From an uncultured virus (IMG/VR IMGVR_UViG_3300027887_000010) (lineage: Duplodnaviria; Heunggongvirae; Uroviricota; Caudoviricetes), in the IMG/VR virus record IMGVR_UViG_3300027887_000010: a DNA stretch of 64,000 nt; one strand, given 5' to 3'. The notes beneath the pieces are model-generated. The model made no database searches. It was given only the letters and a program-made list of their open reading frames with translations, and was not told the origin of the DNA. Position 1 is the stretch's first letter; every line of letters starts with the position of its first letter. A program made the translations under genes and the position numbers. Positions 1-10,083 of the stretch are shown in pieces.

Positions 1-31
1 GCCGGCCATCGTGTCGGTGAGCACTCACTTC

Positions 32-73
32 CTGTATAGATAGACAGTATAAATAACCTGTACAGATAGACAG
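32..73. promoter_or_regulatory. Two LexA (SOS)-box-like operators, CTGT-N8-ACAG
   Basis: CTGTATAGATAGACAG at 32-47 and CTGTACAGATAGACAG at 58-73. A minus-strand TATACT (46-51) overlaps box 1. Confidence 0.6.
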
Positions 74-151
74 TCGGCGCAGCCTGGGAGCGGGGCCTAT
101 AAACTAGGCGACTCGGCGCAGCCTGGGAGCGGGGCCTAAAAACTAGGCAAA
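74..151. repeat. 39-bp tandem repeat, 2 copies
   Basis: tcggcgcagcctgggagcggggcctaWaaactaggc starts at 74 and at 113. Confidence 0.9.
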
Positions 152-714
152 CCAGGCGCAGGCATAGCAAGAAATAGACCAGTCACGGCGCTCACATAGT
201 AGAAGCAAAAAGCAGACCCGATATTTGCCTACTTATTAGGCAAATTGACGTTTATGTAAAAAGCATCCCCTCAGCAAAGTACCTGCCGCAGCGTGTAAGC
301 GATTTTTTTCTGCGCCTATACCAGTACATGACCAACCTGGCGATCGTGCAGCCTGCGCGATTTGTAGCAGCCTACTTATTAGGCAAACAAGTGTTTCACG
401 ACAAGCAATAAGCGGACCATGCAGCATCAAGCAAGAAGCAGACCAGATATTGGGTACTATACAGGGAGGGGGCCTGCGTAGTAGGCGCCTACATACCAGG
501 CAATGAGAAAGCAAGAAGCAGACCATGTGGGCGCCTCACAGTAGATAAAGCAACATCTAGACCAGCGAGGCGTCTGTACGGTATTGGCTATAAACAGCCT
601 ACATAATAGGCGCCCAAATAGTAGGCAATGCAGCCTGCACCGACTGCCCGTTATATAGGCGCCCACATATTAGGCACATGCGTCGCCTACATAGTAGGCG
701 CCCAATACATAGGC
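95..714. repeat. Array of 12 dyad-symmetric 15-bp motifs, consensus GCCYA-N5-TAGGC
   Basis: Copies start at 95, 134, 227, 370, 472, 487, 597, 612, 646, 661, 685 and 700. Confidence 0.85.
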
Positions 715-1163
715 ACCTGGCGCATCGCGCGGTCGCTCGATAAATAGGCAACGACGCACCGATAGTCAAAGCCTACCCCTACCTCCCCCTTGATAGTCTT
801 TAGCTATGGGGCGCGCCCACCCTAATCTCCCTATCTTGAGTCCATCCTTATAATCCCATAACTTCTATCTACTTATACTTGATGTATATTACTTCTTATA
901 GTCGATTCATGTAAATATATTAGACTGGTATGAATCTTGCTACACGGACGCGCCCATCTGGTAAGTATGCTATAGCAAAGTCTATTAACGTATAAGCACA
1001 TATACGACATCTTTGTTATACTTTCCTACTAATCCTCATATAAATTAGTAGTTGATCCTAAATTTACCCTCACATTTTATACAACAATCATGTTTCTGTA
1101 AAAATATGGAGGCTGTATTTTTCAAAGCTTTACGACTGTTAAGTTATCCTTTAAAAAAGATTA

Positions 1164-1192
1164 TTGCACACTCCTAAAAGTTACTGCATAAT
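1164..1192 (+). promoter_or_regulatory. sigma70-type promoter upstream of the structured RNA
   Basis: TTGCAC, 17-bp spacer, CATAAT; AT-rich upstream element. Confidence 0.65.
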
Positions 1193-1198
1193 GCATTC

Positions 1199-1890
1199 AA
1201 CACGAAGCCTGCACAAACACTTCCCGTAGAAGTGCGACCAGTTCTCGCTAACTCCCTAAGAGCTCTGGCATGAAATGTGGTCATTGTGCAGGACTGCCGG
1301 GTAACAGCGGCGTAAGACCATCAACATACTGTTACCGTGAACTGGAAATGGGCCTAACCCATTCGAAAAGTAAAGTTGGTGCCTAAAAGCTGGCAGAGCT
1401 CAATGTAGGTTAGAGCAAATTGGGTAGCGATGGTTAAAGCCTCAGTTGTCCAAACCAACTTTACGTTCTAAAGATATATGTACCAATAGATCTGGACCTT
1501 GGGTTGCTACCCCTCCCGGCAATTGCGGATTGGAGTTTCCTCCCCTTTTCTCCAGTCTGACCTACCAGTTTTGACCAGACTGGTGGCCAAGGTTCAGTTC
1601 TATTGGTATAAGTCTTACAGAAGGCAATATTTAAAGTCTTACAGGTCATCAGCTTCTTCAACTTTTCATAAGAAAGGAGATAAGGCTGCGGGAACAGCGG
1701 GCTGATGACCTTCCTAACGTCAAATAGAAAGCAATTATGACTTCACAATTTAAACGGATCTTGTTTCCGTTGCAAGGTCCGCGTATATTCACAAACAGCT
1801 TTTGGCCTGTTCATGTAATGTCGTCCGCTGTAAACGGTTATTCCGAGCGATTTTTTCTTGTACGTCCAGATTGGAAGAAGGTTAATCCGC
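1199..1890 (+). ncRNA. Putative large, highly structured non-coding RNA (3' end uncertain, 1710-1890)
   Basis: More than 10 complementary segment pairs of 6-21 bp, several crossing. No credible CDS. Promoter directly upstream, tRNA directly downstream. Confidence 0.65.
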
Positions 1891-1912
1891 CCTGTTAGCA
1901 TGAAGGTCGTGC
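1889..1912 (+). pseudogene. 5' remnant of a tRNA gene (acceptor strand and D-arm), Thr-like
   Basis: GCCCTGT-TA-GCAT GAAGGTC GTGC parallels the 5' end of the intact tRNA-Thr that follows. Confidence 0.55.
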
Positions 1913-1983
1913 TCTTGTAGCTTGAAGGTCGAGCAGCGGCTTTGTAATCCGCAGGTGACAGTTCGATTCTGTCCAAGAGCACC
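1911..1983 (+). tRNA. tRNA-Thr(UGU)
   Basis: Acceptor GCTCTTG/CAAGAGC, anticodon loop TT-TGT-AA, T-arm GACAG-TTCGATT-CTGTC. Confidence 0.9.
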
Positions 1984-1993
1984 GAGGAATATT

Positions 1994-2371
1994 ATGGCAA
2001 TTTGTACAGGATGCGCTAAAGAATGGGAACCTTCTCGTAATTCCAAAGGTTTATACTGTTCCGCAAAGTGCCAACAAGCTGTTAGTATTGCAGAACGGTA
2101 TGTTCGTTTCTTAAATGATGAAGAAAACGTATATAAGGGTATTCATACTCTCAAAGATGCGGTTATTCGTCGTGATGGAAATAAATGTTTTTGTTGTGGT
2201 ATTGAAGAGTGGAATGGGAAGCAGATTGTGTTTGATCTTGAACACAAAGACGGAAATCCATATAACGATAAAGGTTCTAATCTTTGTTTATTATGCCCAA
2301 ACTGCCATTCTCAGACTACAACATACAAAGGTGCTAACAAAGGATTTGGAAGAAAAGAACGCTCTGTATAA
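1994..2371 (+). CDS. HNH endonuclease with N-terminal Cys motifs
   Basis: RDGNKCFCCG...EHKDGNPYND...NL.LLCPNCH; RBS gagga before ATG 1994. Confidence 0.85.
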   Translation: MAICTGCAKEWEPSRNSKGLYCSAKCQQAVSIAERYVRFLNDEENVYKGIHTLKDAVIRRDGNKCFCCGIEEWNGKQIVFDLEHKDGNPYNDKGSNLCLLCPNCHSQTTTYKGANKGFGRKERSV

Positions 2372-2388
2372 TTCTCTCACGGGCACCA
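2371..2388 (+). pseudogene. 3' remnant of a tRNA gene (T-stem strand, acceptor strand, ACCA)
   Basis: ATT-CTCTC-ACGGGC-A-CCA at the HNH stop. Pairs with GCCCTGT (1889) with one bulge. Confidence 0.55.
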
Positions 2389-2407
2389 TTTAATAAGGGA
2401 GATTTAA

Positions 2408-2650
2408 ATGAATGATATTCAAGATCGTGTAATTGATATTTTAAGTTCCCAACTAGGTGTTTCTGTTGGAGATATTACTTTAGAAAAGAATATTACAACA
2501 GACTTAAATGCAGATAGCCTAGACATTTACGAAATTGTAATTGAGCTAGAAGAAGAATTTAAAGTTGTTATTGAAGACGATGTTATTGATACGTTAAAGA
2601 CAGTCAATGATATTGTACTTCTTGTTCAGAAGCTTTTGGGGGATAAGTGA
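2408..2650 (+). CDS. acpP: Acyl carrier protein
   Basis: 80-aa acidic protein with DL.ADSLD..EIV..LEEEF and phosphopantetheine Ser motif. Confidence 0.9.
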   Translation: MNDIQDRVIDILSSQLGVSVGDITLEKNITTDLNADSLDIYEIVIELEEEFKVVIEDDVIDTLKTVNDIVLLVQKLLGDK

Positions 2651-2877
2651 CCACTCCGGTTATTAGGTTGTGTCCTGAGCCAAACACAACAATGACACCA
2701 GCTCAAGCTTTACATTCGGTGTTGCCCGCTATTGAAGCTGGAATGCAGGATCTTCTTATTATTGGATACGATGTAGATGGTGACTTATTTATTCGTTCCA
2801 GTAAAATGACACGAGCTGAAGCATTTTTCATGGCTCACAAAGCTATGCAATGGGCAGAATCTGGGGGAATAACATGA
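2647..2877 (+). CDS. Hypothetical protein
   Basis: Overlapping stop/start coupling and RBS. Confidence 0.7.
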   Translation: MTTPVIRLCPEPNTTMTPAQALHSVLPAIEAGMQDLLIIGYDVDGDLFIRSSKMTRAEAFFMAHKAMQWAESGGIT

Positions 2878-3194
2878 AACTTACTTGGAAAGTTGATCCA
2901 CCTCCTAGTGGAAGATGGAAATCTTTTACAAAGCGTGGATGGCCTACTGCAGAATGGCCAGATGGTTCAATTGCTGCGCTAATCTATTGTGTAGATGAAT
3001 ATGTCCCTCGACTGGTGAAAAAGGGTGAACATGCCCCTTTAGTTATATGGGTATTTCAATATAATGTGCCTGGATATGAACCTAAACTTTCAAAGCGTCA
3101 TAAGCTAAAGCGTACTGTAGATACAATTCAAGAAGCAAAGGATCTTGTTAAGAAGTTCTTTGAAGAACACATAACTTGGATTCCTTTAGATTAA
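2874..3194 (+). CDS. Hypothetical protein
   Basis: ATGA overlap; RBS ggggga. Confidence 0.7.
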   Translation: MKLTWKVDPPPSGRWKSFTKRGWPTAEWPDGSIAALIYCVDEYVPRLVKKGEHAPLVIWVFQYNVPGYEPKLSKRHKLKRTVDTIQEAKDLVKKFFEEHITWIPLD

Positions 3195-3210
3195 CTTTGC
3201 GTAAGGATCA

Positions 3211-3333
3211 AGGGTGAATGCGTAGGCTGATACGCAGGTGGGCACATCTGCTATGGTTAGCAAGTGCTGCGACGGCTTTAAACCTATGAACGCGGATAAC
3301 CAAGCAAGCCGGAGATCAGCACCGGCCACCCCT
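3211..3333 (+). ncRNA. Putative tRNA-like structured RNA with a kissing-loop pseudoknot
   Basis: Closing stem GGGTG/CACCC, hairpins TGCGTA/TACGCA and GCCGG/CCGGC, complementary loop segments GCTGAT and ATCAGC. Confidence 0.6.
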
Positions 3334-3342
3334 TCAATCTCG

Positions 3343-3375
3343 GCCTGGGTGGTGAAATTGGTAGACACAAGGATT
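3343..3375 (+). pseudogene. 5' remnant of a tRNA-Leu gene
   Basis: GCCTGGG-TG-GTGAAATTGGTAGACAC-AAGGA: Leu-type D-arm, truncated at the anticodon stem. Confidence 0.8.
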
Positions 3376-3378
3376 AAC

Positions 3379-3406
3379 TTGCAAATTAGCATACAACTGT
3401 TAAAAT
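3379..3406 (+). promoter_or_regulatory. Promoter inside the tRNA-Leu/HNH insertion
   Basis: TTGCAA, 16-bp spacer, extended -10 TGt-TAAAAT. Confidence 0.55.
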
Positions 3407-3426
3407 TTTTATAAGTTAACAATTTA

Positions 3427-3509
3427 GCGGGAGTAGCCGAATGGTATAGGCATCGGACTTAAAATCCGACGACATTGTCATGTGGGTTCGAATCCCATCT
3501 CCCGCACCA
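3427..3509 (+). tRNA. tRNA-Leu(UAA)
   Basis: Acceptor GCGGGAG/CTCCCGC, anticodon arm TCGGA-CT-TAA-AA-TCCGA, long variable arm, GGTTCGAATCC, encoded CCA. Confidence 0.95.
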
Positions 3510-3516
3510 TCATTAA

Positions 3517-3975
3517 ATGAAAATATACGGGCCTTATTTAAGAAAAGATGGTAGAAAGCATGTCATCATTATTCATGATAATGGAATAAGTCAGACACGT
3601 TCTTATCCTAGATTACTTTTAGAACAAAAATTAGGTCGATCTTTAACAGATGAAGAGACTGTTGATCATATAGATGGAGACTTCACTAATGATGCTCCTG
3701 AAAATTTAAGAGCTTTGTCCAGGGTAGAAAATGCAGCGAACGGTTGGATTACTGGCAATTGTTCAGCTTTTGTAGCTACAAAAGAATTTCGTGATAAACA
3801 AAGGTTATTGCATTCTGGTTCTAAAAATGGAATGGCTAAACTTACAGATAAACAAATTTTAGATATAAGATCAAGACCTAAATATCACGGTATTATCCGC
3901 GATTTAATGTTAGAATTTAATTTATCAAGAAGAACAATTCAAAACATATTAAATCATACTTCCTATTTATTATAG
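3517..3975 (+). CDS. HNH homing endonuclease with C-terminal DNA-binding (NUMOD/HTH-like) region
   Basis: LGRSL...ETVDHIDGDFTND.PENL..L...EN; C-terminal G.KNGMAKLT..QI..IR. Confidence 0.85.
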   Translation: MKIYGPYLRKDGRKHVIIIHDNGISQTRSYPRLLLEQKLGRSLTDEETVDHIDGDFTNDAPENLRALSRVENAANGWITGNCSAFVATKEFRDKQRLLHSGSKNGMAKLTDKQILDIRSRPKYHGIIRDLMLEFNLSRRTIQNILNHTSYLL

Positions 3976-3993
3976 ATCCCGTCCCAGGCACCA
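3975..3993 (+). pseudogene. 3' remnant of the disrupted tRNA-Leu gene
   Basis: GAT-CCCGT-CCCAGGC-A-CCA. CCCAGGC pairs perfectly with GCCTGGG at 3343. Confidence 0.8.
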
Positions 3994-4021
3994 AAGTTTT
4001 AAAAATTTAAGGACATTAGTT

Positions 4022-4219
4022 ATGAACCAACGGTATTTTTCCAGAAAATTCATTCTTACATTGCTTGTCATTATTCTTGCAACACTTTTGCTATTATTTA
4101 CCTTTATTGAATCTTCTATGTGGGTCACTGTATGCCTTGCCTCACTAGCTTTCTATCAAACTGCAAACGTCAGTCAAAAATATAAGGAAACTAAAGAGGT
4201 ACTTAATGGAAATTCTTGA
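4022..4219 (+). CDS. Small two-TM membrane protein
   Basis: Two hydrophobic segments; RBS aagga. Confidence 0.65.
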   Translation: MNQRYFSRKFILTLLVIILATLLLLFTFIESSMWVTVCLASLAFYQTANVSQKYKETKEVLNGNS

Positions 4220-4382
4220 AATGATTGCAAAGTGGCGAAAAGGGTGTATATGTTCAATAGAAGGACACCCCGAAGAATGTTTATCTTGCACTATTGCTCT
4301 TATTGATGCAATTGAGAATAAAGAAAAAGCACGTCTAAATATTTCTATTGATCAAAAAGAGGAAGAACATCGTGTCTGCTAA
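4206..4382 (+). CDS. Hypothetical Cys-containing protein (58 aa, not in ORF track)
   Basis: MEILEMIAKWRKGC...; RBS gaggt; fills the gap between neighbours. Confidence 0.6.
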   Translation: MEILEMIAKWRKGCICSIEGHPEECLSCTIALIDAIENKEKARLNISIDQKEEEHRVC

Positions 4383-4656
4383 AGCAACTGGTCAGGATAC
4401 TGATTATTATGTTGTTACGATCACAGATCCAAAGCGTTTAGCACCCTATAAAGCTGAATGTGAAGATATTATTGAAGTCCTTGGAATGAATTTTGCAGAG
4501 GGTAATGCATTTAAAGCGATTTGGCGTAGTTGTGCAGCTAGGACTCTTGGGAATATAAAGCCTGGTTCTGACCAAAAAGGTGTTTACGACGCTGAAAAGG
4601 TGGAGTATTATGGGCGTCGTATGGTTGCTATCCGAAAACGTCAAGAAACATCTTAA
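4372..4656 (+). CDS. DUF3310-like protein (T7 gp1.7 nucleotide kinase-like)
   Basis: ECEDIIE..GMNFAEGNAFKAIWR...D.EK..YY pattern; GTG start after gagga. Confidence 0.6.
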   Translation: MSAKATGQDTDYYVVTITDPKRLAPYKAECEDIIEVLGMNFAEGNAFKAIWRSCAARTLGNIKPGSDQKGVYDAEKVEYYGRRMVAIRKRQETS

Positions 4657-4669
4657 TCTGGAGACTAAA

Positions 4670-5086
4670 ATGTATATCCCAAAACTTGCTTATGAAAGTT
4701 TACCTTTCACTTATATTGTGATTGGAATTGTCGGTCTTTTTTCTAGCGTAAACTTTGGGATACTTTTTGGTGTTATTTTGATCGGCATTGCATTGTACAT
4801 CCAGAGCAAAAGAAACTTCTATAGATCGATGATCAAAAATATGAAAATTACAGGGAATAAGATGAGATTATCAGTTCTTGAAGGTGATCCAAATAAAACA
4901 CAAGATGCTCATAAATACAATGTTTTTCTTGATGGTATAAAACAAACACATTGTATCATTGCAGATAGTGAAAATGGCTATGTTCTTCGTTATAAAAGAA
5001 CAGGCCTTGGTACTTTGAGCGTAGGCAGGGATGGCAAACTAAAGACAGAAGAATGCTTTGGCAATGTGGTCATTGAAAGTAAGTAA
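4670..5086 (+). CDS. Hypothetical protein with N-terminal TM segments (possible internal start at 4862)
   Basis: RBS ggag before ATG 4670; hydrophobic N-terminus. Confidence 0.6.
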   Translation: MYIPKLAYESLPFTYIVIGIVGLFSSVNFGILFGVILIGIALYIQSKRNFYRSMIKNMKITGNKMRLSVLEGDPNKTQDAHKYNVFLDGIKQTHCIIADSENGYVLRYKRTGLGTLSVGRDGKLKTEECFGNVVIESK

Positions 5087-5304
5087 TGACAATTGAATAT
5101 GCACCGATCATTAAAAAGGCACAGTTAGAGAAACACGTCGCAGAATTGCGACTCGGTGCTTCAAATCTAGCACATTCTGCTGCTTGTATTGAACGAAACG
5201 ATGAACTTGAAATTAAAATTCGTCAGGAGATTCATGCGTTACAAGATATTATCTTAGATAATGCTGCAATTATTTTTCACTGTATTGCGAAGCAAAAGGA
5301 ATAG
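5086..5304 (+). CDS. Hypothetical protein
   Basis: TAATG coupling. Confidence 0.6.
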   Translation: MTIEYAPIIKKAQLEKHVAELRLGASNLAHSAACIERNDELEIKIRQEIHALQDIILDNAAIIFHCIAKQKE

Positions 5305-5444
5305 AAGGATTATTGTACAATAATCTTCTGTGTTGTGTATAGCGAGGTTGGTAGCAGTACCTTCCTCGTTTTGTTTTGTACTACTGTAAGCGTTACCTAT
5401 AGCAAGGCGCTGGAGAATAAACTAACTTTTCTGCAATCGTCGCC

Positions 5445-5473
5445 TTGTAAAAGGGCAGTTTGTCTTTTATACT
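5445..5473 (+). promoter_or_regulatory. sigma70-type promoter for the terminase operon
   Basis: TTGTAA, 17-bp spacer, TATACT. Confidence 0.6.
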
Positions 5474-5501
5474 CTGGTCATGCTTAAATAAGGTGATCAA
5501 A

Positions 5502-6020
5502 ATGTCCGAAGGTTTTTTCTGGAAATCCAAATATGGTGATCAAGTTACTCCAGATATGACTGGACAGGAGCGTGAACTGCGTGACTTGTTTGTTCGTGAA
5601 TATTTGGTAGACTTCGATTCGAAAGCTGCTGCAATCCGTTGTGGTTTTGTTGAAAGCTATGCTGAACAATATGCTGTTCAGTTTATGGGTGAAACTTACG
5701 TTCGTAAGCGTATCACAGAATTGTCTCATTCTACGGAAGAAAAGGATGATGCTGAAAAAGAGGCTGAAACCCGCCAACGAATTCTCACATCGCTATTTAG
5801 GGAGGCTAATTACAGGGGTCCTGGTTCTAGCCACGGCGCTCGTATTGCTGCTCTTTCCAAGCTGGCCTCGTTACATGGGATGGATGTACCGACCAAAGTC
5901 GAGCAGACCATTAATCACAAGGGTGGTGTGATGACTATCCCGGCAGTTGGATCTTTAGCTGAATGGGAAGAACAAGCAATGGCTAGTCAAGAAAAGCTGG
6001 TGTCTGAGGCGGAATCTTGA
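5502..6020 (+). CDS. terS: Terminase small subunit
   Basis: FVREYLVDFD.KAAAIRCG HTH motif; directly upstream of TerL. Confidence 0.85.
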   Translation: MSEGFFWKSKYGDQVTPDMTGQERELRDLFVREYLVDFDSKAAAIRCGFVESYAEQYAVQFMGETYVRKRITELSHSTEEKDDAEKEAETRQRILTSLFREANYRGPGSSHGARIAALSKLASLHGMDVPTKVEQTINHKGGVMTIPAVGSLAEWEEQAMASQEKLVSEAES

Positions 6021-8572
6021 GGATATTACCAGATGGGACTAAAGTTGTTTGGGAGCCCCTTAAAGGTTCTCAAGCCTTATCCCTCACTTGTCCTGCTAAT
6101 ATTATTGTATTTCACGGTACTCGTGGGCCAGGGAAGGGGCTTCCTATCAATGAACCTGTCTATACACCTACCGGACAGGTTCAAATAGGTCTGTTAAAAG
6201 AAGGGGATCTTGTTTGCTGTCCGGATGGATCTACTAGCCCTATTGTAGGTGTGTATCCTCAAGGTCAACGTCAAACTTATGAGATTGAATTTTTTGATGG
6301 TTCAATTGCTAGGTGTGATGACCAACATATTTGGAATCTTCATATTGGCGGAAGGTTTCCTGCTGGTACGTATAAGAACTTTACAATGTGTGAAGTTCTT
6401 AGGATGTTTAAAACAACAGATTACAGACTTAACATTCCAACTTTAGATAAGGTTGAGATGGTTACGTGTACAAGCCTTCCAATTGAACCTTATATGATGG
6501 GTTTGTTCCTTGGTGATGGTTGTTCAGCACAACGTGGTTCTTATTGCACTGTTGATTCTGAACTTGCGGATCATGCTTTAAGTCATGGTTTTCGGGAAAC
6601 ACTTTTTGATCAACGTAACGGTCTCCGAAACTTTAGTGCAAATTGCGAATTTACAGAAGCAATGAATAAGCTTGGTTTGCAAGATGTTCGTTCGCAGACA
6701 AAATACATTCCATCTATTTATTTACATCAGCCCTATGATTTACGCCTTGCAATTTTACAAGGCGTAATGGATACAGATGGGACAATTGATAAGAAAGGTT
6801 ATATTTCATTCTGTAGCAGCAGTCTGCAACTTGCTAAAGATGTGCAATACCTTGCACGATCGCTTGGTGCTCGGGCTACGCTAACGGATAAATGGCCTAG
6901 TATCAGCGAAGTAGTTTATGATAAAGTGTATCAGGTGTATATCCAAACTGGAAATAAATTTACCCCATTTAGGTTGAAGCGTAAGGTTGATAGAATTAAA
7001 CCTTACATGCATAAACATCTGACAAACAAGATTGTTGCAATTAGGGAACTTGGGTTGCAAGAAACTGTTTGTATCAAGATTGCGCATGAAGATGGTTTGT
7101 TTATCACAAGAGATTTTGTTGTCACACATAATACGGACGCACAGTTGATGCGTTTTAGACGTAATGTTGGCCAAGGATATGGTCGATATTGGCGCGGGAT
7201 TATTTTTGACCGTGAGTACAAGAACCTTGATGACTTGGTTTCCAAGTCTATGCGGTGGTTTCCTGAATTTAAAGATGGTGCTCGCTTTATGTCAAGTAAA
7301 GCAGACTATCGTTGGGTATGGCCTACGGGGGAAGAACTTCTATTCCGGGCTATTAAGAAGGATACAGACTATTGGGGTTATCACGGTCAAGAGTTTCCGT
7401 TTATTGGCTGGAACGAATTAACAAAGTATCCTAACGATTCATTGTTTGAGTCAATGATGTCTTGTAACCGTTCTTCTTTTTTACCAAGTGAGCATCCTCA
7501 ATATATTGGTAATGATCCTGTACCTCATTATTTAAATGAACTTCCACTAGAAGTTTTTATTACCACAAATCCATACGGAGCTGGTCATAATTGGGTTAAG
7601 AAACGGTTTATATCGTGTGGTAAAGCTGGGCAGATTGTCAAAAAGGTTGTAAATGTATTCAACCCAAGGACTCAACAGCGCGAAGATGTTGTTAAAACTC
7701 AGACACACCTATTCGGGAGCTATCGTGAAAACACATATTTGTCTCCTCAGTATGTTGCAGAGTTGGAAGGAATCTCTGATCCAAATAAGCGTCGGGCTTG
7801 GTTGTTTGGTGATTGGGATATTGTTGCTGGTGGTATGTTCGATGATGTTTGGGACAAAAATGTCCATATTATTGATCCATTCGATATTCCGTCAAACTGG
7901 CGTATAGATAGATCTTATGATCATGGTGAGTCACGTCCTTTTTCTGTTGGTTGGTGGGCGGAGTCTGATGGTAGTGATGTTAAACTCTCAGATGGTAAGT
8001 GGATGAGTACCGTAAAGGGTGACTTATTCCGTATTGATGAATGGTATGGTTGGACAGGCAAAGCTAATCAAGGTTTACGTCTGTTATCTACAGTTATTGC
8101 TGAAGGAATTGTAGAACGAGAAGTTCAAAATGGAATTCATAATAGGGTTGTTCCAGGGCCTGCAGACAATAGTATTTGGGATGTAGAAAATGGTAATTCT
8201 ATTGCAGCAGATATGGCAAAGCCTGTTAAGTTAGACAGAAAACGTTATAAGGGTGTTCAGTGGCTTCGTAGTGATAAAGCAAAGGGTAGTCGCAAAGCAG
8301 GTTGGAAACAAATTCGAAATTATCTTAAGGATGCATTACCAGTAACACGTGAAGAAGACGGAAAAATTCTTAGTCTGCCTCGCGAAAAGCCTGGTATGTT
8401 TATTTTTAATAACTGTACAATGTTCATAGAATTGTTTCCAGTTGCTCCTCGGGACGAAAACGACCCCGACGATATTGATACGGAATCAGAAGACCATATT
8501 TGTGACGAAGTGCGATACAAAGCATTATCAACGGATATTGGTGCTCGCGGTGGTAGAACTAGAGGAATGTAA
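6017..8572 (+). CDS. terL: Terminase large subunit, intein-containing
   Basis: Walker A GTRGPGK/T, GQEF.FIGWNELT, TTNP.G.GH.WVK, nuclease DRSYDHG and EDHICDE.RY. Confidence 0.95.
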   Translation: MRILPDGTKVVWEPLKGSQALSLTCPANIIVFHGTRGPGKGLPINEPVYTPTGQVQIGLLKEGDLVCCPDGSTSPIVGVYPQGQRQTYEIEFFDGSIARCDDQHIWNLHIGGRFPAGTYKNFTMCEVLRMFKTTDYRLNIPTLDKVEMVTCTSLPIEPYMMGLFLGDGCSAQRGSYCTVDSELADHALSHGFRETLFDQRNGLRNFSANCEFTEAMNKLGLQDVRSQTKYIPSIYLHQPYDLRLAILQGVMDTDGTIDKKGYISFCSSSLQLAKDVQYLARSLGARATLTDKWPSISEVVYDKVYQVYIQTGNKFTPFRLKRKVDRIKPYMHKHLTNKIVAIRELGLQETVCIKIAHEDGLFITRDFVVTHNTDAQLMRFRRNVGQGYGRYWRGIIFDREYKNLDDLVSKSMRWFPEFKDGARFMSSKADYRWVWPTGEELLFRAIKKDTDYWGYHGQEFPFIGWNELTKYPNDSLFESMMSCNRSSFLPSEHPQYIGNDPVPHYLNELPLEVFITTNPYGAGHNWVKKRFISCGKAGQIVKKVVNVFNPRTQQREDVVKTQTHLFGSYRENTYLSPQYVAELEGISDPNKRRAWLFGDWDIVAGGMFDDVWDKNVHIIDPFDIPSNWRIDRSYDHGESRPFSVGWWAESDGSDVKLSDGKWMSTVKGDLFRIDEWYGWTGKANQGLRLLSTVIAEGIVEREVQNGIHNRVVPGPADNSIWDVENGNSIAADMAKPVKLDRKRYKGVQWLRSDKAKGSRKAGWKQIRNYLKDALPVTREEDGKILSLPREKPGMFIFNNCTMFIELFPVAPRDENDPDDIDTESEDHICDEVRYKALSTDIGARGGRTRGM
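6137..7132 (+). mobile_element. Class 3 intein with LAGLIDADG endonuclease in the TerL P-loop
   Basis: Starts GLPINEPVYTPTG, ends VVTHN/T. LAGLIDADG motifs MMGLFLGDG and LQGVMDTDG. WCT triplet present. Confidence 0.85.
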
Positions 8573-8574
8573 TT

Positions 8575-10083
8575 ATGTCATTAAAAAGTGTTCATCCTGA
8601 ATACACCATCTTTGCTACTGACTGGATTAGTATGCGAGACTTTCACGCTGGTGAGAAAGCTGTGAAAGAAAAGGGGGAAACTTACCTTCCCCCAACCGCA
8701 GGTATGATTATTGATGGAATGCAACCTACACAACTTGGTTGGGCAATTTATCAAGCATACAAAAATCGTTCCGTATTTCCAGATTACGTTAAGGAAGGTG
8801 TTGAAGCGTTGATGGGTTTAATTCATCAACACGATGCTAAAATTGAACTTCCTGCATCAATGCAATACCTTTTAAAAGCAGCTACGGTAAATGGTGAATC
8901 ATTACTTATGTTGCTCCGTAAGATTAACGAAGAACAATTAATTACAGGTCGTGTTGGTATTCTTGTTGATTTACCTGCAAATCCTGATCCTGCAAAACCT
9001 CAACCTTTCTTAGCCCTTTACTCCGCTGAATCTATCATTAATTGGGATGATGGGGCAAACCATCTTGGTGAATCTAAACTTAACCTTGTCGTTTTAAATG
9101 AATCAACATCTATTCGTGATGGTTTTTCATGGAAGCAACAGGAGATTTATCGCGTTCTTCAGTTGGGTACAATGGATGCTAATGAACCAAATGGTACTTA
9201 TTATCAGGGGGTCTTTAAAGATACAGACTACTCTCAAGAAGCGATGCAATTACCAATGCTTCGTGGTCGAACACTAAAAGATATTCCGTTTGTTTTTATC
9301 AATACTAAAGATTTAATCACTTCACCAGATTATCCTCCTTTGTTAGGTCTTGGTTATTCCTGCTTGACAATCTATAGGGCAGAGGCAGATTATCGTCAAA
9401 ATTTGCACATGCAAGGGCAGGATACGCTAGTAACGGTTGGTGGAATTCGTAATCCTAATTCTATGCCTGGGGAAGCTGATGCAGTACGTGTTGGCGCAGG
9501 TAGCCGCTTGGATGTTGAGATGGGAGGGGATGCCAAATTTATAGGTGTTTCCTCTATGGGTCTTTCCGAACAGCGTAACGCTATTGAAAATGACCGTAAG
9601 CGAGCAGAATTTAAAGCTGGACAGCTTGTTGGAAATCAAAGTCTTAAGAATGAATCTGGTAATGCAATGATTGCTCGGTTAGCTTCTCAGACTGCTAATT
9701 TAAATCAGATTTCAATGAGTGCTGGTGAAGGTCTTGAGAGGGCGCTTAAACATATTGCGGTATGGATGAACGAAGATCCCGAATCTGTCAAAGTCATCCC
9801 GAATAGTGAATTTACAAATTCTGCTTCTAATGCACAAGAACTTGTATATTTAATGACTGCTAGAAGTATGGGTGCTCCGCTATCTATGCAGAGTATTCAT
9901 TCTACATTACGTGAACGTAACTATACAATGATGGACTATGAAGATGAGAAAAAGCTTGTAGAAGAAGAAGGCCCCAACGGACAGAAAGCTATTGCATTAG
10001 ACGTGAAGTCTGATAAAAATCTTACTGTTAAGGATGGCGATAAAAATTCAACAACACAGGATCAATCAGCACCTGTTGTTTAA
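8575..10083 (+). CDS. Portal protein (DUF4055-like)
   Basis: HPEY...W...VK.KG..YLP N-terminus; follows TerL; 502 aa. Confidence 0.85.
   Translation: MSLKSVHPEYTIFATDWISMRDFHAGEKAVKEKGETYLPPTAGMIIDGMQPTQLGWAIYQAYKNRSVFPDYVKEGVEALMGLIHQHDAKIELPASMQYLLKAATVNGESLLMLLRKINEEQLITGRVGILVDLPANPDPAKPQPFLALYSAESIINWDDGANHLGESKLNLVVLNESTSIRDGFSWKQQEIYRVLQLGTMDANEPNGTYYQGVFKDTDYSQEAMQLPMLRGRTLKDIPFVFINTKDLITSPDYPPLLGLGYSCLTIYRAEADYRQNLHMQGQDTLVTVGGIRNPNSMPGEADAVRVGAGSRLDVEMGGDAKFIGVSSMGLSEQRNAIENDRKRAEFKAGQLVGNQSLKNESGNAMIARLASQTANLNQISMSAGEGLERALKHIAVWMNEDPESVKVIPNSEFTNSASNAQELVYLMTARSMGAPLSMQSIHSTLRERNYTMMDYEDEKKLVEEEGPNGQKAIALDVKSDKNLTVKDGDKNSTTQDQSAPVV

Follow-up and report, generated by a model that had tools for sequence, protein, structure and literature searches.

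A putative new class of large structured RNA at the head of a tRNA region in an uncultured siphophage

The uncultured virus IMGVR_UViG_3300027887_000010 (Caudoviricetes) was analysed as one stretch of 64,000 nucleotides (nt), referred to as the window. Positions 1199 to 1712 of its plus strand very likely encode an undescribed multi-domain structured RNA, which would form the head of an RNA-tRNA precursor and act as a stable folded RNA. At least nine predicted helices (S1, S2, X, He, Hg, Sd, Sc, SL and SZ) are shown by alignment to be kept through compensatory or wobble changes across about five lineages. A first-pass annotation had placed a large, multi-pseudoknotted non-coding RNA here, beside the phage tRNAs, either a member of a class such as GOLLD or ROOL or a new one. 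Folding, homologues and compensatory changes bear out the large structured RNA and favour the second branch; judged from its sequence, the RNA is an undescribed class among the large ornate RNAs that phages are known to carry beside tRNAs.

Extent of the RNA and its relatives

The RNA and its borders were delineated as follows.

1164 to 1192, plus strand: promoter P1, sigma70-type (TTGCAC, 17 nt, CATAAT)
1199 to 1712, plus strand: structured non-coding RNA, about 514 nt
1713 to 1910, plus strand: spacer with tRNA debris, outside the RNA family, recognised from its folding z score, blastn and direct repeat D6

The sigma70-like promoter proposed at 1164-1192 is present. A consensus scan finds it as TGCACA-16-CATAAT with 9 of 12 positions matching, and in the form TTGCnn-N17-yAyAAT it is kept 130 to 148 nt before the conserved 5' core of the RNA in 10 of the 11 loci of the family, L012 being without it. 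Transcription would thus start near 1199. The stretch 1199-1712 folds with a minimum free energy (MFE) of -191.7 kcal/mol (z -6.85), a value equalled by none of 100 shuffles. The longer stretch 1199-1890 reaches -234.5 kcal/mol (z -5.75; 0 of 20 shuffles), and its minus strand folds less well (z -3.84). Perfect stems of at least 8 base pairs number seven, against 1.93 ± 1.37 in 200 dinucleotide shuffles, one of which reached seven. The RNA of a relative, L032, also folds better than its shuffles (z -3.35; 0 of 20 equal it). The first-pass annotation had extended the structure to about 1870 or 1890. That extension falls away: 1713-1890 folds like chance (z -0.48; 68 of 200 shuffles equal it) and, compared by blastn with the tRNA regions of L004, L011 and L032, shares with relatives nothing but tRNA fragments. 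The RNA is therefore taken to end near 1712, at the SZ hairpin, because the sequence beyond folds no better than shuffles and holds tRNA remnants. The stretch is, as had been claimed, richer in G+C (0.42-0.505) than its upstream (0.29) and downstream (0.34-0.375) flanks. Fifteen G-U cells in the supported helices are compatible with the plus strand only; these, the promoter and the tRNAs agree in placing the predicted RNA on that strand.

The family comprises 11 loci of about five lineages, the window and 10 other phage contigs from metagenomes; 10 of the loci are distinct in the 5' domain. The lineages are the window itself; group A (L011, L027, L031); group B (L004, L029, L032/L034, L033); L012; and L005, which holds the 5' part only. 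A related large terminase is encoded by 20 loci, and the RNA region was found in 4 of the 19 non-identical ones (L011, L004, L012, L005). A 19-base degenerate pattern of the core gave eight metagenome loci, of which six are true (L027, L029, L031-L034) and two are chance matches. One IMG/VR contig matches the start of the window exactly, and in the nearest genome record, G001, the RNA region is absent.

Wider searches returned little else. In contigs of 185,579 bacterial and archaeal species genomes (GTDB), the core pattern gave one chance match in a coding-like stretch, and a blastn search of 50,697 phage records with the RNA from the window, L011 and L032 recovered nothing but a tRNA-Thr match. 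A hidden Markov model of the core, run over the collected loci including positions 1-8000 of phage Iggy, phage HD01 and more distant terminase relatives, found nothing beyond the 11. Covariance model R1 finds one copy in the window (91 bits; next match E 0.92), and over whole Iggy, whole HD01 and three partial virus records none of the five gave a convincing match (best E 0.24, 12 bits). Scans of viral contigs with other conserved islands returned only the same five contigs, already known. A junction-motif search gave 31 loci, one of them true; the other 30 are coding-like or unrelated by eye, and two lookalikes are coding region.

Helices of the 5', middle and 3' domains

Covariation was scored as paired cells and as pairs changed on both sides, with slid registers and shuffles as controls. 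Whole-RNA MAFFT alignments were unusable outside the core because modules differ between lineages, and helices were tested on sub-alignments cut at the stem ends. The 5' domain is made up of the following elements.

1206 to 1216 with 1284 to 1295, plus strand: helix S1, A1293 bulged, enclosing a variable loop
1252 to 1265, plus strand: hairpin Hp and palindrome, CUC-CCUAA-GAG (1252-1262) followed by CUC, giving GAGCUC (1260-1265)
1271 to 1276, plus strand: -10-like hexamer TGAAAT, directly before GUGGUCAU
1274 to 1347, plus strand: nearly invariant 5' core, about 70 nt
1278 to 1320, plus strand: possible pseudoknot PK1, UGGUCAU (1278-1284) with AAGACCA (1314-1320), inside the S2 loop
1296 to 1311, plus strand: helix X, GCCG (1296-1299) with CGGC (1308-1311)
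1300 to 1336, plus strand: helix S2, GGUAACAG (1300-1307) with CUGUUACC (1329-1336), round a 21-nt invariant loop

Across the 10 distinct sequences, 96.8% of 281 cells of the 5' domain are paired, against 31-48% in slid registers, and eight pairs have both sides changed; the covariation score was reached by none of 500 shuffles. S1 contributes most of these changes, with 96.7% of its cells paired and 6 of its 10 column pairs changed on both sides. By eye, its strand is spelled CCUGCACAA, CCCUGCAU, CCUGUGUUCG, CUUGCC or CUUGG in the different lineages, with the complement present each time. The S1 loop holds a window-specific hairpin, the small conserved hairpin Hp with its 6-nt palindrome, and the -10-like hexamer. 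In the window and group A the Hp stem is formed by CUC/GAG; group B has AUC/GAU there, with a UUCG loop (by eye, from the alignment). The window, L011 and L027 spell the palindrome GAGCUC, L031 has AGAUCU, and L004, L029, L032, L033 and L034 have GGAUCC (by eye). Equivalents of the hexamer, again by eye, are TATAAT (L011), TAGAAT (L004 type), TAATAAT (L032, L012) and CATTAT (L005). The promoter consensus scan of the window did not list the hexamer at 1271-1276. It might serve as a promoter inside the transcript or as a site of sigma-dependent pausing.

Over 69-76 nt the core is 86-88% identical in relatives whose flanking sequences can no longer be aligned, and its alignment has 46 invariant columns. 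Length differences of 1-2 nt occur between GGUCAU and the 3' strand of S1, and coding is ruled out for the core because these insertions and deletions lie inside it. All cells of X (4 pairs) and of S2 (8 pairs) are paired. In X, a pair that is G-C in the window alone is C-G in the nine others, a double change amid an invariant stretch; S2 has one compensatory change from G-C to C-G (L005) and one G-U (L031). The two helices compete because X encloses the 5' strand of S2 without linkers. The MFE fold of 1199-1712 picks X over S2, and RNAalifold on the unanchored 5' alignment recovered S2 alone. PK1 is paired in 91.4% of its cells, with one A-A mismatch in the window, and is broken in L005. An alternative partner, GACCA (1236-1240), is present in the window and group B only (by eye). 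One further topology was tried for the core and rejected, that of an HDV-like ribozyme: too little sequence lies between S2 and PK1 for a P3 hairpin.

The middle and 3' domains follow the core.

1348 to 1362, plus strand: hairpin Hb, AUGGG-CCUAA-CCCAU
1367 to 1467, plus strand: mid domain, closed by Sc (1367-1380 with 1454-1467)
Within the mid domain, plus strand: He (1380-1383 with 1392-1395), Hg (1398-1402 with 1411-1416), Sd (1420-1423 with 1450-1453) and the conserved loop AAAGCCU (1436-1442)
1483 to 1606, plus strand: SL domain, 16-bp stem (1483-1498 with 1591-1606), extended in the window to 1481-1502 with 1587-1608
1644 to 1710, plus strand: 3' hairpin SZ, 1645-1653 with 1701-1709 plus G1644-C1710

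Hb is respelled as UAGGG/CCCUA in L004 and as AGCAG/CUGCU in L011, L027 and L031 (by eye). Sc occupies the same location in six loci with four unrelated sequences and is complementary at 5 to 14 positions, one of the window's 14 being a mismatch. He and Hg are 96.3% paired, against at most 50% in slid registers, and each has one column changed on both sides (CG/GC/UA; CG/UA), while Sd reads UUGG/CCAA, or UCGG/CCGA in L011. The SL domain is constant in size, at 122-125 nt in five distinct sequences. Its stem of 16 pairs is 91.3% paired, against at most 44% in slid registers, with six pairs changed on both sides. The SZ hairpin is paired in all cells of its nine pairs, 4 of 9 changed on both sides among four distinct sequences. 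Just before it, a direct repeat AAGTCTTACAG stands at 1610-1620 and 1634-1644, 24 nt apart; a near-relative contig in run X10 lacks exactly 24 nt at 1610.

The loop of SZ carries an invariant CAACUUUUCAUAAGAAAGGAG (1659-1679) that ends in AAGGAG (1674-1679). Over CAACUUUUCAnAAGAAAGGAG(G), 21 of 22 consecutive columns are invariant, with a perfect Shine-Dalgarno-like motif inside. AAGGAG(G), preceded by an A/U-rich tract, is a perfect complement of the 3' end of 16S ribosomal RNA, and the loop resembles a strong ribosome-binding site that lacks a downstream gene. Two further ideas were considered and rejected: for a CsrA or Hfq sponge, just one GGA/ARN-like motif is conserved, and a Shine-Dalgarno/anti-Shine-Dalgarno pairing inside the RNA has no conserved partner. 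Between the core and the SZ loop the window has 360 nt, group B 545-591 nt and L011 772 nt, and the whole RNA measures about 514 nt in the window and about 700-1000 nt in relatives with extra modules. From these alignments the family is modular, and the window has its smallest version.

All 11 pairings listed in the first-pass annotation are complementary over 6 to 22 positions each (Watson-Crick or G-U, one mismatch in a 22-nt stem), and five of them are kept in relatives: 1208-16/1284-92, 1300-07/1329-36, 1370-80/1454-64, 1481-1502/1587-1608 and 1644-53/1701-10. Two, 1218-23/1229-34 and 1527-35/1550-58, are window-specific. The pairing 1260-67/1394-1401 is ambiguous; it competes with Hg and the palindrome, and is kept, in a shifted register, in group B only (by eye). 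The claim that many helices cross did not survive the comparison. The crossing helices 1238-44/1339-45, 1295-1301/1515-21 and 1422-30/1504-12 have no equivalent of at least 6-7 nt in most of eight relatives, the best being matches of 5-6 nt in L027 and L031. On this evidence the molecule is a string of domains, among which one pseudoknot is plausible, rather than a heavily pseudoknotted RNA.

Genomic setting and tRNA genes

Downstream of the RNA, tRNA genes stand in the window and in six relatives (L011, L004, L012, L032, L027 and L031). In L004 and L032, a tRNA-Pro starts 4 nt past the SZ stem. The tRNA genes and fragments of the window are as follows.

1755 to 1781, plus strand: tRNA-Pro acceptor-stem remnant (blastn)
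1801 to 1824, plus strand: degenerate 5' fragment (first 22-24 nt) of the relatives' tRNA-Thr
1889 to 1910, plus strand: exact 5' copy of the relatives' tRNA-Thr
1911 to 1983, plus strand: tRNA-Thr (UGU), first intact gene after the RNA (ARAGORN; Rfam tRNA model, 58.6 bits)
3427 to 3509, later in the window: tRNA-Leu (Rfam and ARAGORN)

The last 5' copy of tRNA-Thr agrees with L004 at all of 24 nt, and the tRNA-Thr that it directly adjoins is a different one. This debris suggests repeated replacement of the tRNA gene, perhaps together with the endonuclease-like open reading frame (ORF) that follows it. Each tRNA gene of the window is followed by a small ORF, at 1994-2368 after tRNA-Thr and at 3517-3972 after tRNA-Leu. 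The latter matches HNH_3 (E 5.6e-08); the former encodes a Cys-rich product of 125 amino acids (aa) with no Pfam match. Both may be free-standing homing endonucleases. In group A phages, tRNA genes of 111-118 nt stand directly after the RNA (L027 1253-1363, minus strand; L031 2759-2876, plus strand). They score 48-50 bits with the Rfam tRNA model, were missed by ARAGORN and carry an insert of about 40 nt round the anticodon arm. An acyl carrier protein (PP-binding, E 2.2e-11) is encoded at 2408-2647 of the window, in the early operon, and an ORF similar to it follows tRNA-Thr in L004 and L032 (by eye).

The window belongs to a tailed phage, with a small terminase gene (5460-6017) about 4.3 kb downstream of the RNA locus, a large terminase gene (6017-8569) and a gene for a DUF4055 protein (8575-10080). 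The last lies where phages Iggy and HD01 have their portal gene and probably encodes the portal protein. Identity of the large terminase to its homologues is 61-69% for Acinetobacter phage HD01, for the Pseudomonas phages Iggy, PBPA162 and Pa-V, and for some Salmonella, Aeromonas and E. coli phages (about 60 kb); the phage that carries the RNA is a siphophage. This terminase has 851 aa, against about 520-530 aa in relatives, and tblastn covers just 60-66% of it, as two separate segments. The additional sequence has matches to LAGLIDADG_3 and Hom_end and is probably an intein.

Upstream of the RNA promoter, window positions 74-715 hold nine copies of a 15-nt palindrome, GCCyAnnnnnnTAGGC (GCCUAnnUAnUAGGC-type). 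The palindrome-bearing DNA (about 800 nt, region 1-780) has a G+C content of 0.46-0.555 and is poor in ORFs. Similar palindromes occur 480-1300 nt upstream of the RNA in L012, L005, L027 and L031, and none in group B loci. The region 1-780 is probably protein-binding DNA, where a DNA-binding protein of the phage would act in replication origin function, packaging or regulation. Leftward of the non-coding region, the first gene to be conserved was identified in L002 (2472-3164, minus strand), about 1.6-2.3 kb upstream of the RNA and on the opposite strand. Its product of 230 aa is 66% identical in L027 and 33% identical in L029, with no Pfam match.

Interpretation and comparison with known systems

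In the preferred account of the locus, the RNA would be transcribed rightward from P1 as the head of an RNA-tRNA precursor. A cut by RNase P at the 5' end of the first tRNA, which in relatives starts 4 nt after SZ, would then free it, and the freed RNA would act in trans as a stable folded molecule. The two invariant surfaces, the 5' core and the SZ loop with AAGGAG(G), are most likely contact sites for conserved host machinery, since their invariance points to a partner that stays the same from host to host.

The alternative with the strongest case is that the RNA serves only as the leader of the tRNA (and early-gene) transcript and acts in cis; the core would then modify RNA polymerase in the manner of HK022 put, or direct folding or processing, and the rest would be a stabilising spacer with no function as a free RNA. 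The core lies about 75 nt past the predicted start with a -10-like hexamer just before it (by eye), a scan finds no terminator-like site between 1199 and 1911, that is, between the RNA and the tRNA, and the competition of X with S2 suggests co-transcriptional switching. The published description of put RNAs likewise gives elements of about 70 nt behind early promoters, putL with a -10-like pause element (PMC9378689). Against this stand the roughly 440 nt past the core that are kept by compensatory change, one domain holding to 122-125 nt, which goes far beyond the needs of a leader. Moreover, a put RNA consists of two stem-loops (a V), whereas the core has one hairpin and perhaps a pseudoknot, and the Rfam search gave no match to a put-like family. 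A leader is considered improbable.

A very divergent GOLLD, ROOL or other Rfam member, missed by covariance models, would share the setting that is common with GOLLD and ROOL in one account (PMC12286853): a phage, a place beside tRNAs, a length of 0.5-1 kb and a modular build. In that account the conserved part of GOLLD is 3', as opposed to 5' here. The check suggested by the first-pass annotation was a search of Rfam, and it was made with Rfam 15 (4227 models, among which we take GOLLD and ROOL to be) on the whole window at gathering score, on 1000-2100 at E ≤ 10 with permissive filters, and on nine homologous loci, with more modules than the window, at E ≤ 1 (55,263 bases). The whole window gave two tRNAs only. 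On 1000-2100, none of the 4227 families was recovered at E ≤ 10 apart from chance microRNA and small nucleolar RNA matches of at most 21 bits, and on the nine loci there were only tRNAs and three chance matches. Models of GOLLD, ROOL, group I and II introns, RNase P RNA, transfer-messenger RNA (tmRNA) and 6S RNA were unmatched, and ARAGORN found no tmRNA in the window. Full-text literature searches for a described class of this kind returned GOLLD and ROOL papers only. Membership of a known family is thus very improbable.

An equally slim chance is given to conservation at the level of DNA, with the core and the palindromes as protein-binding sites (packaging, replication, operator) near a genome end and the helices incidental. 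The locus, about 4.3 kb before the gene for the small terminase, does adjoin about 1 kb of ORF-poor DNA rich in 15-nt palindromes, the ends of several contigs fall 150-500 nt upstream of the core, and 6-nt palindromes stand in the S1 loop. However, compensatory changes across strands 70-110 nt apart and G-U pairs, which would be A-C on the other strand, are a signature of RNA and not of sites in duplex DNA, and the conserved promoter points into the element.

Least credible of all is that the locus encodes one or more small proteins, for although ORFs of 34-68 aa occur on both strands and AAGGAG could serve as a Shine-Dalgarno motif, no ATG, GTG or TTG follows it by 5-10 nt in the window, L004, L032 or L011, no in-frame ORF is conserved between lineages, and the most conserved part has indels of 1-2 nt. 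A conserved coding signal had been named in the first-pass annotation as grounds for rejecting the RNA, and none was found, in keeping with its statement that the stretch holds no credible coding sequence: the longest ORF has 68 aa on the plus strand and 79 aa on the minus strand, neither conserved. Stop-free frames run to 83 aa in the window, and peptide matches between loci reach at most 45 aa, in several frames on both strands of one and the same conserved DNA, with the frame changing between loci.

Homologues were thus collected, as had also been suggested, and compensatory changes were found in many helices, and a stable folded RNA released from a tRNA precursor is the preferred explanation. 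Several observations nevertheless weigh against it. The loci are few (11, of about five lineages), and each compensatory column stands for few independent events. PK1 has zero covariation, both strands being invariant, X and S2 cannot both form fully, and the predicted fold of the invariant core with PK1 shows almost no covariation and is not established. The architecture is not uniform, as the SZ hairpin is absent from L027, L029 and L031, and the SL interior of the window is without the junction motifs UAUGAUUCUG and CAUAUACUA common to the other four. The idea of ribosome binding would draw on one Shine-Dalgarno-like motif and an analogy only. Finally, no RNA run is on record among the 23 sequencing runs that contain the stretch, so that the start and end of the RNA, its stability and its processing are predictions. 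The label RNA-Seq is borne by two wastewater runs, which are rated probably DNA; their contig depth is high over 1202-1403 only, and as contigs cannot show transcripts, nothing is claimed from them.

As for the partner of such a folded RNA, the small ribosomal subunit is put forward tentatively, with a role at the ribosome or in tRNA supply, the niche proposed for GOLLD and ROOL. This role is favoured because the SZ loop complements the 3' end of 16S ribosomal RNA and because GOLLD is reported to be ribosome-bound and tRNA-linked. A bolder proposal, offered as a long shot, is that the RNA represents a third independent class of phage "ornate" RNA, covalently fused to phage tRNAs. It would self-associate through its palindromic loop (GAGCUC/AGAUCU/GGAUCC) and dock on the 30S subunit through the AAGGAG(G) loop, and the RNA-only assembly would capture ribosomes or concentrate phage tRNAs early in infection, with X/S2 in the core as a switch or recognition module.

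Among described systems, GOLLD and ROOL are phage and prophage RNAs often found near tRNA islands (PMC12286853). As presented in that source, ROOL is about 0.6 kb long with many helices, and no known protein partner or function is given for it there; the GOLLD linker in some cases contains tRNAs, pull-downs showed GOLLD bound by ribosomes, and the 3' region of GOLLD is universally conserved, its 5' region less so (PMC12286853). The same setting is found here, with terminase, probable portal and other phage genes, and with tRNAs after the RNA in the window and six relatives. Like ROOL, this RNA is phage-borne, stands directly before tRNAs and measures 0.5-1 kb, but there is no covariance-model match between them, and their sequences and helices are unrelated. 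The known hosts for ROOL are Firmicutes and rumen bacteria, whereas the nearest cultured relatives of the present phage infect Acinetobacter, Pseudomonas, Salmonella, Aeromonas and E. coli.

GOLLD resembles the RNA of the window in being large and modular, with one conserved and one variable half, near tRNA arrays. GOLLD was bound by ribosomes in pull-downs and is sometimes linked to tRNAs; here, a tRNA lies within 4 nt in relatives and the Shine-Dalgarno-like loop is invariant. The conserved part is 3' in GOLLD, whereas here the invariant core is 5' (1274-1347) and the middle and 3' modules vary. ROOL forms an RNA-only multimeric cage and GOLLD, usually longer than 800 nt, a 14-mer cage. These cages are homo-oligomers held by kissing loops and A-minor contacts, of which the 6-nt palindrome in the S1 loop, with its three spellings (by eye), is the sole hint here.

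Two smaller systems invite comparison. The put RNAs of HK022, as outlined in one report, are about 70 nt long, form two stem-loops in a V shape and lie downstream of early promoters, putL having a -10-like pause element (PMC9378689). The 70-nt core of the present RNA has the same position and size, with a -10-like hexamer before it, but put has its two stem-loops only, whereas here one hairpin (S2), the competing X and the possible PK1 are followed by about 440 nt of conserved structure. The tRNA clusters of phages T4 and T5 also contain stable non-tRNA RNAs, which are co-transcribed with the tRNAs and released by tRNA-processing enzymes. Those RNAs are simple and 80-140 nt long, whereas the family described here is multi-domain and 0.5-1 kb long.

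The RNA offers several experimental handles, including a compact 514 nt with clear domain boundaries, a near-invariant 70-nt core, an invariant loop like a ribosome-binding site and, in relatives, a tRNA 4 nt downstream. GOLLD and ROOL are the main current examples of giant structured phage RNAs by tRNA genes, and their cage assemblies were solved recently. An unrelated RNA with the same genomic habit in another phage lineage, whose relatives infect Proteobacteria, would make a big folded RNA with tRNAs a recurrent phage strategy and not a quirk of two families.

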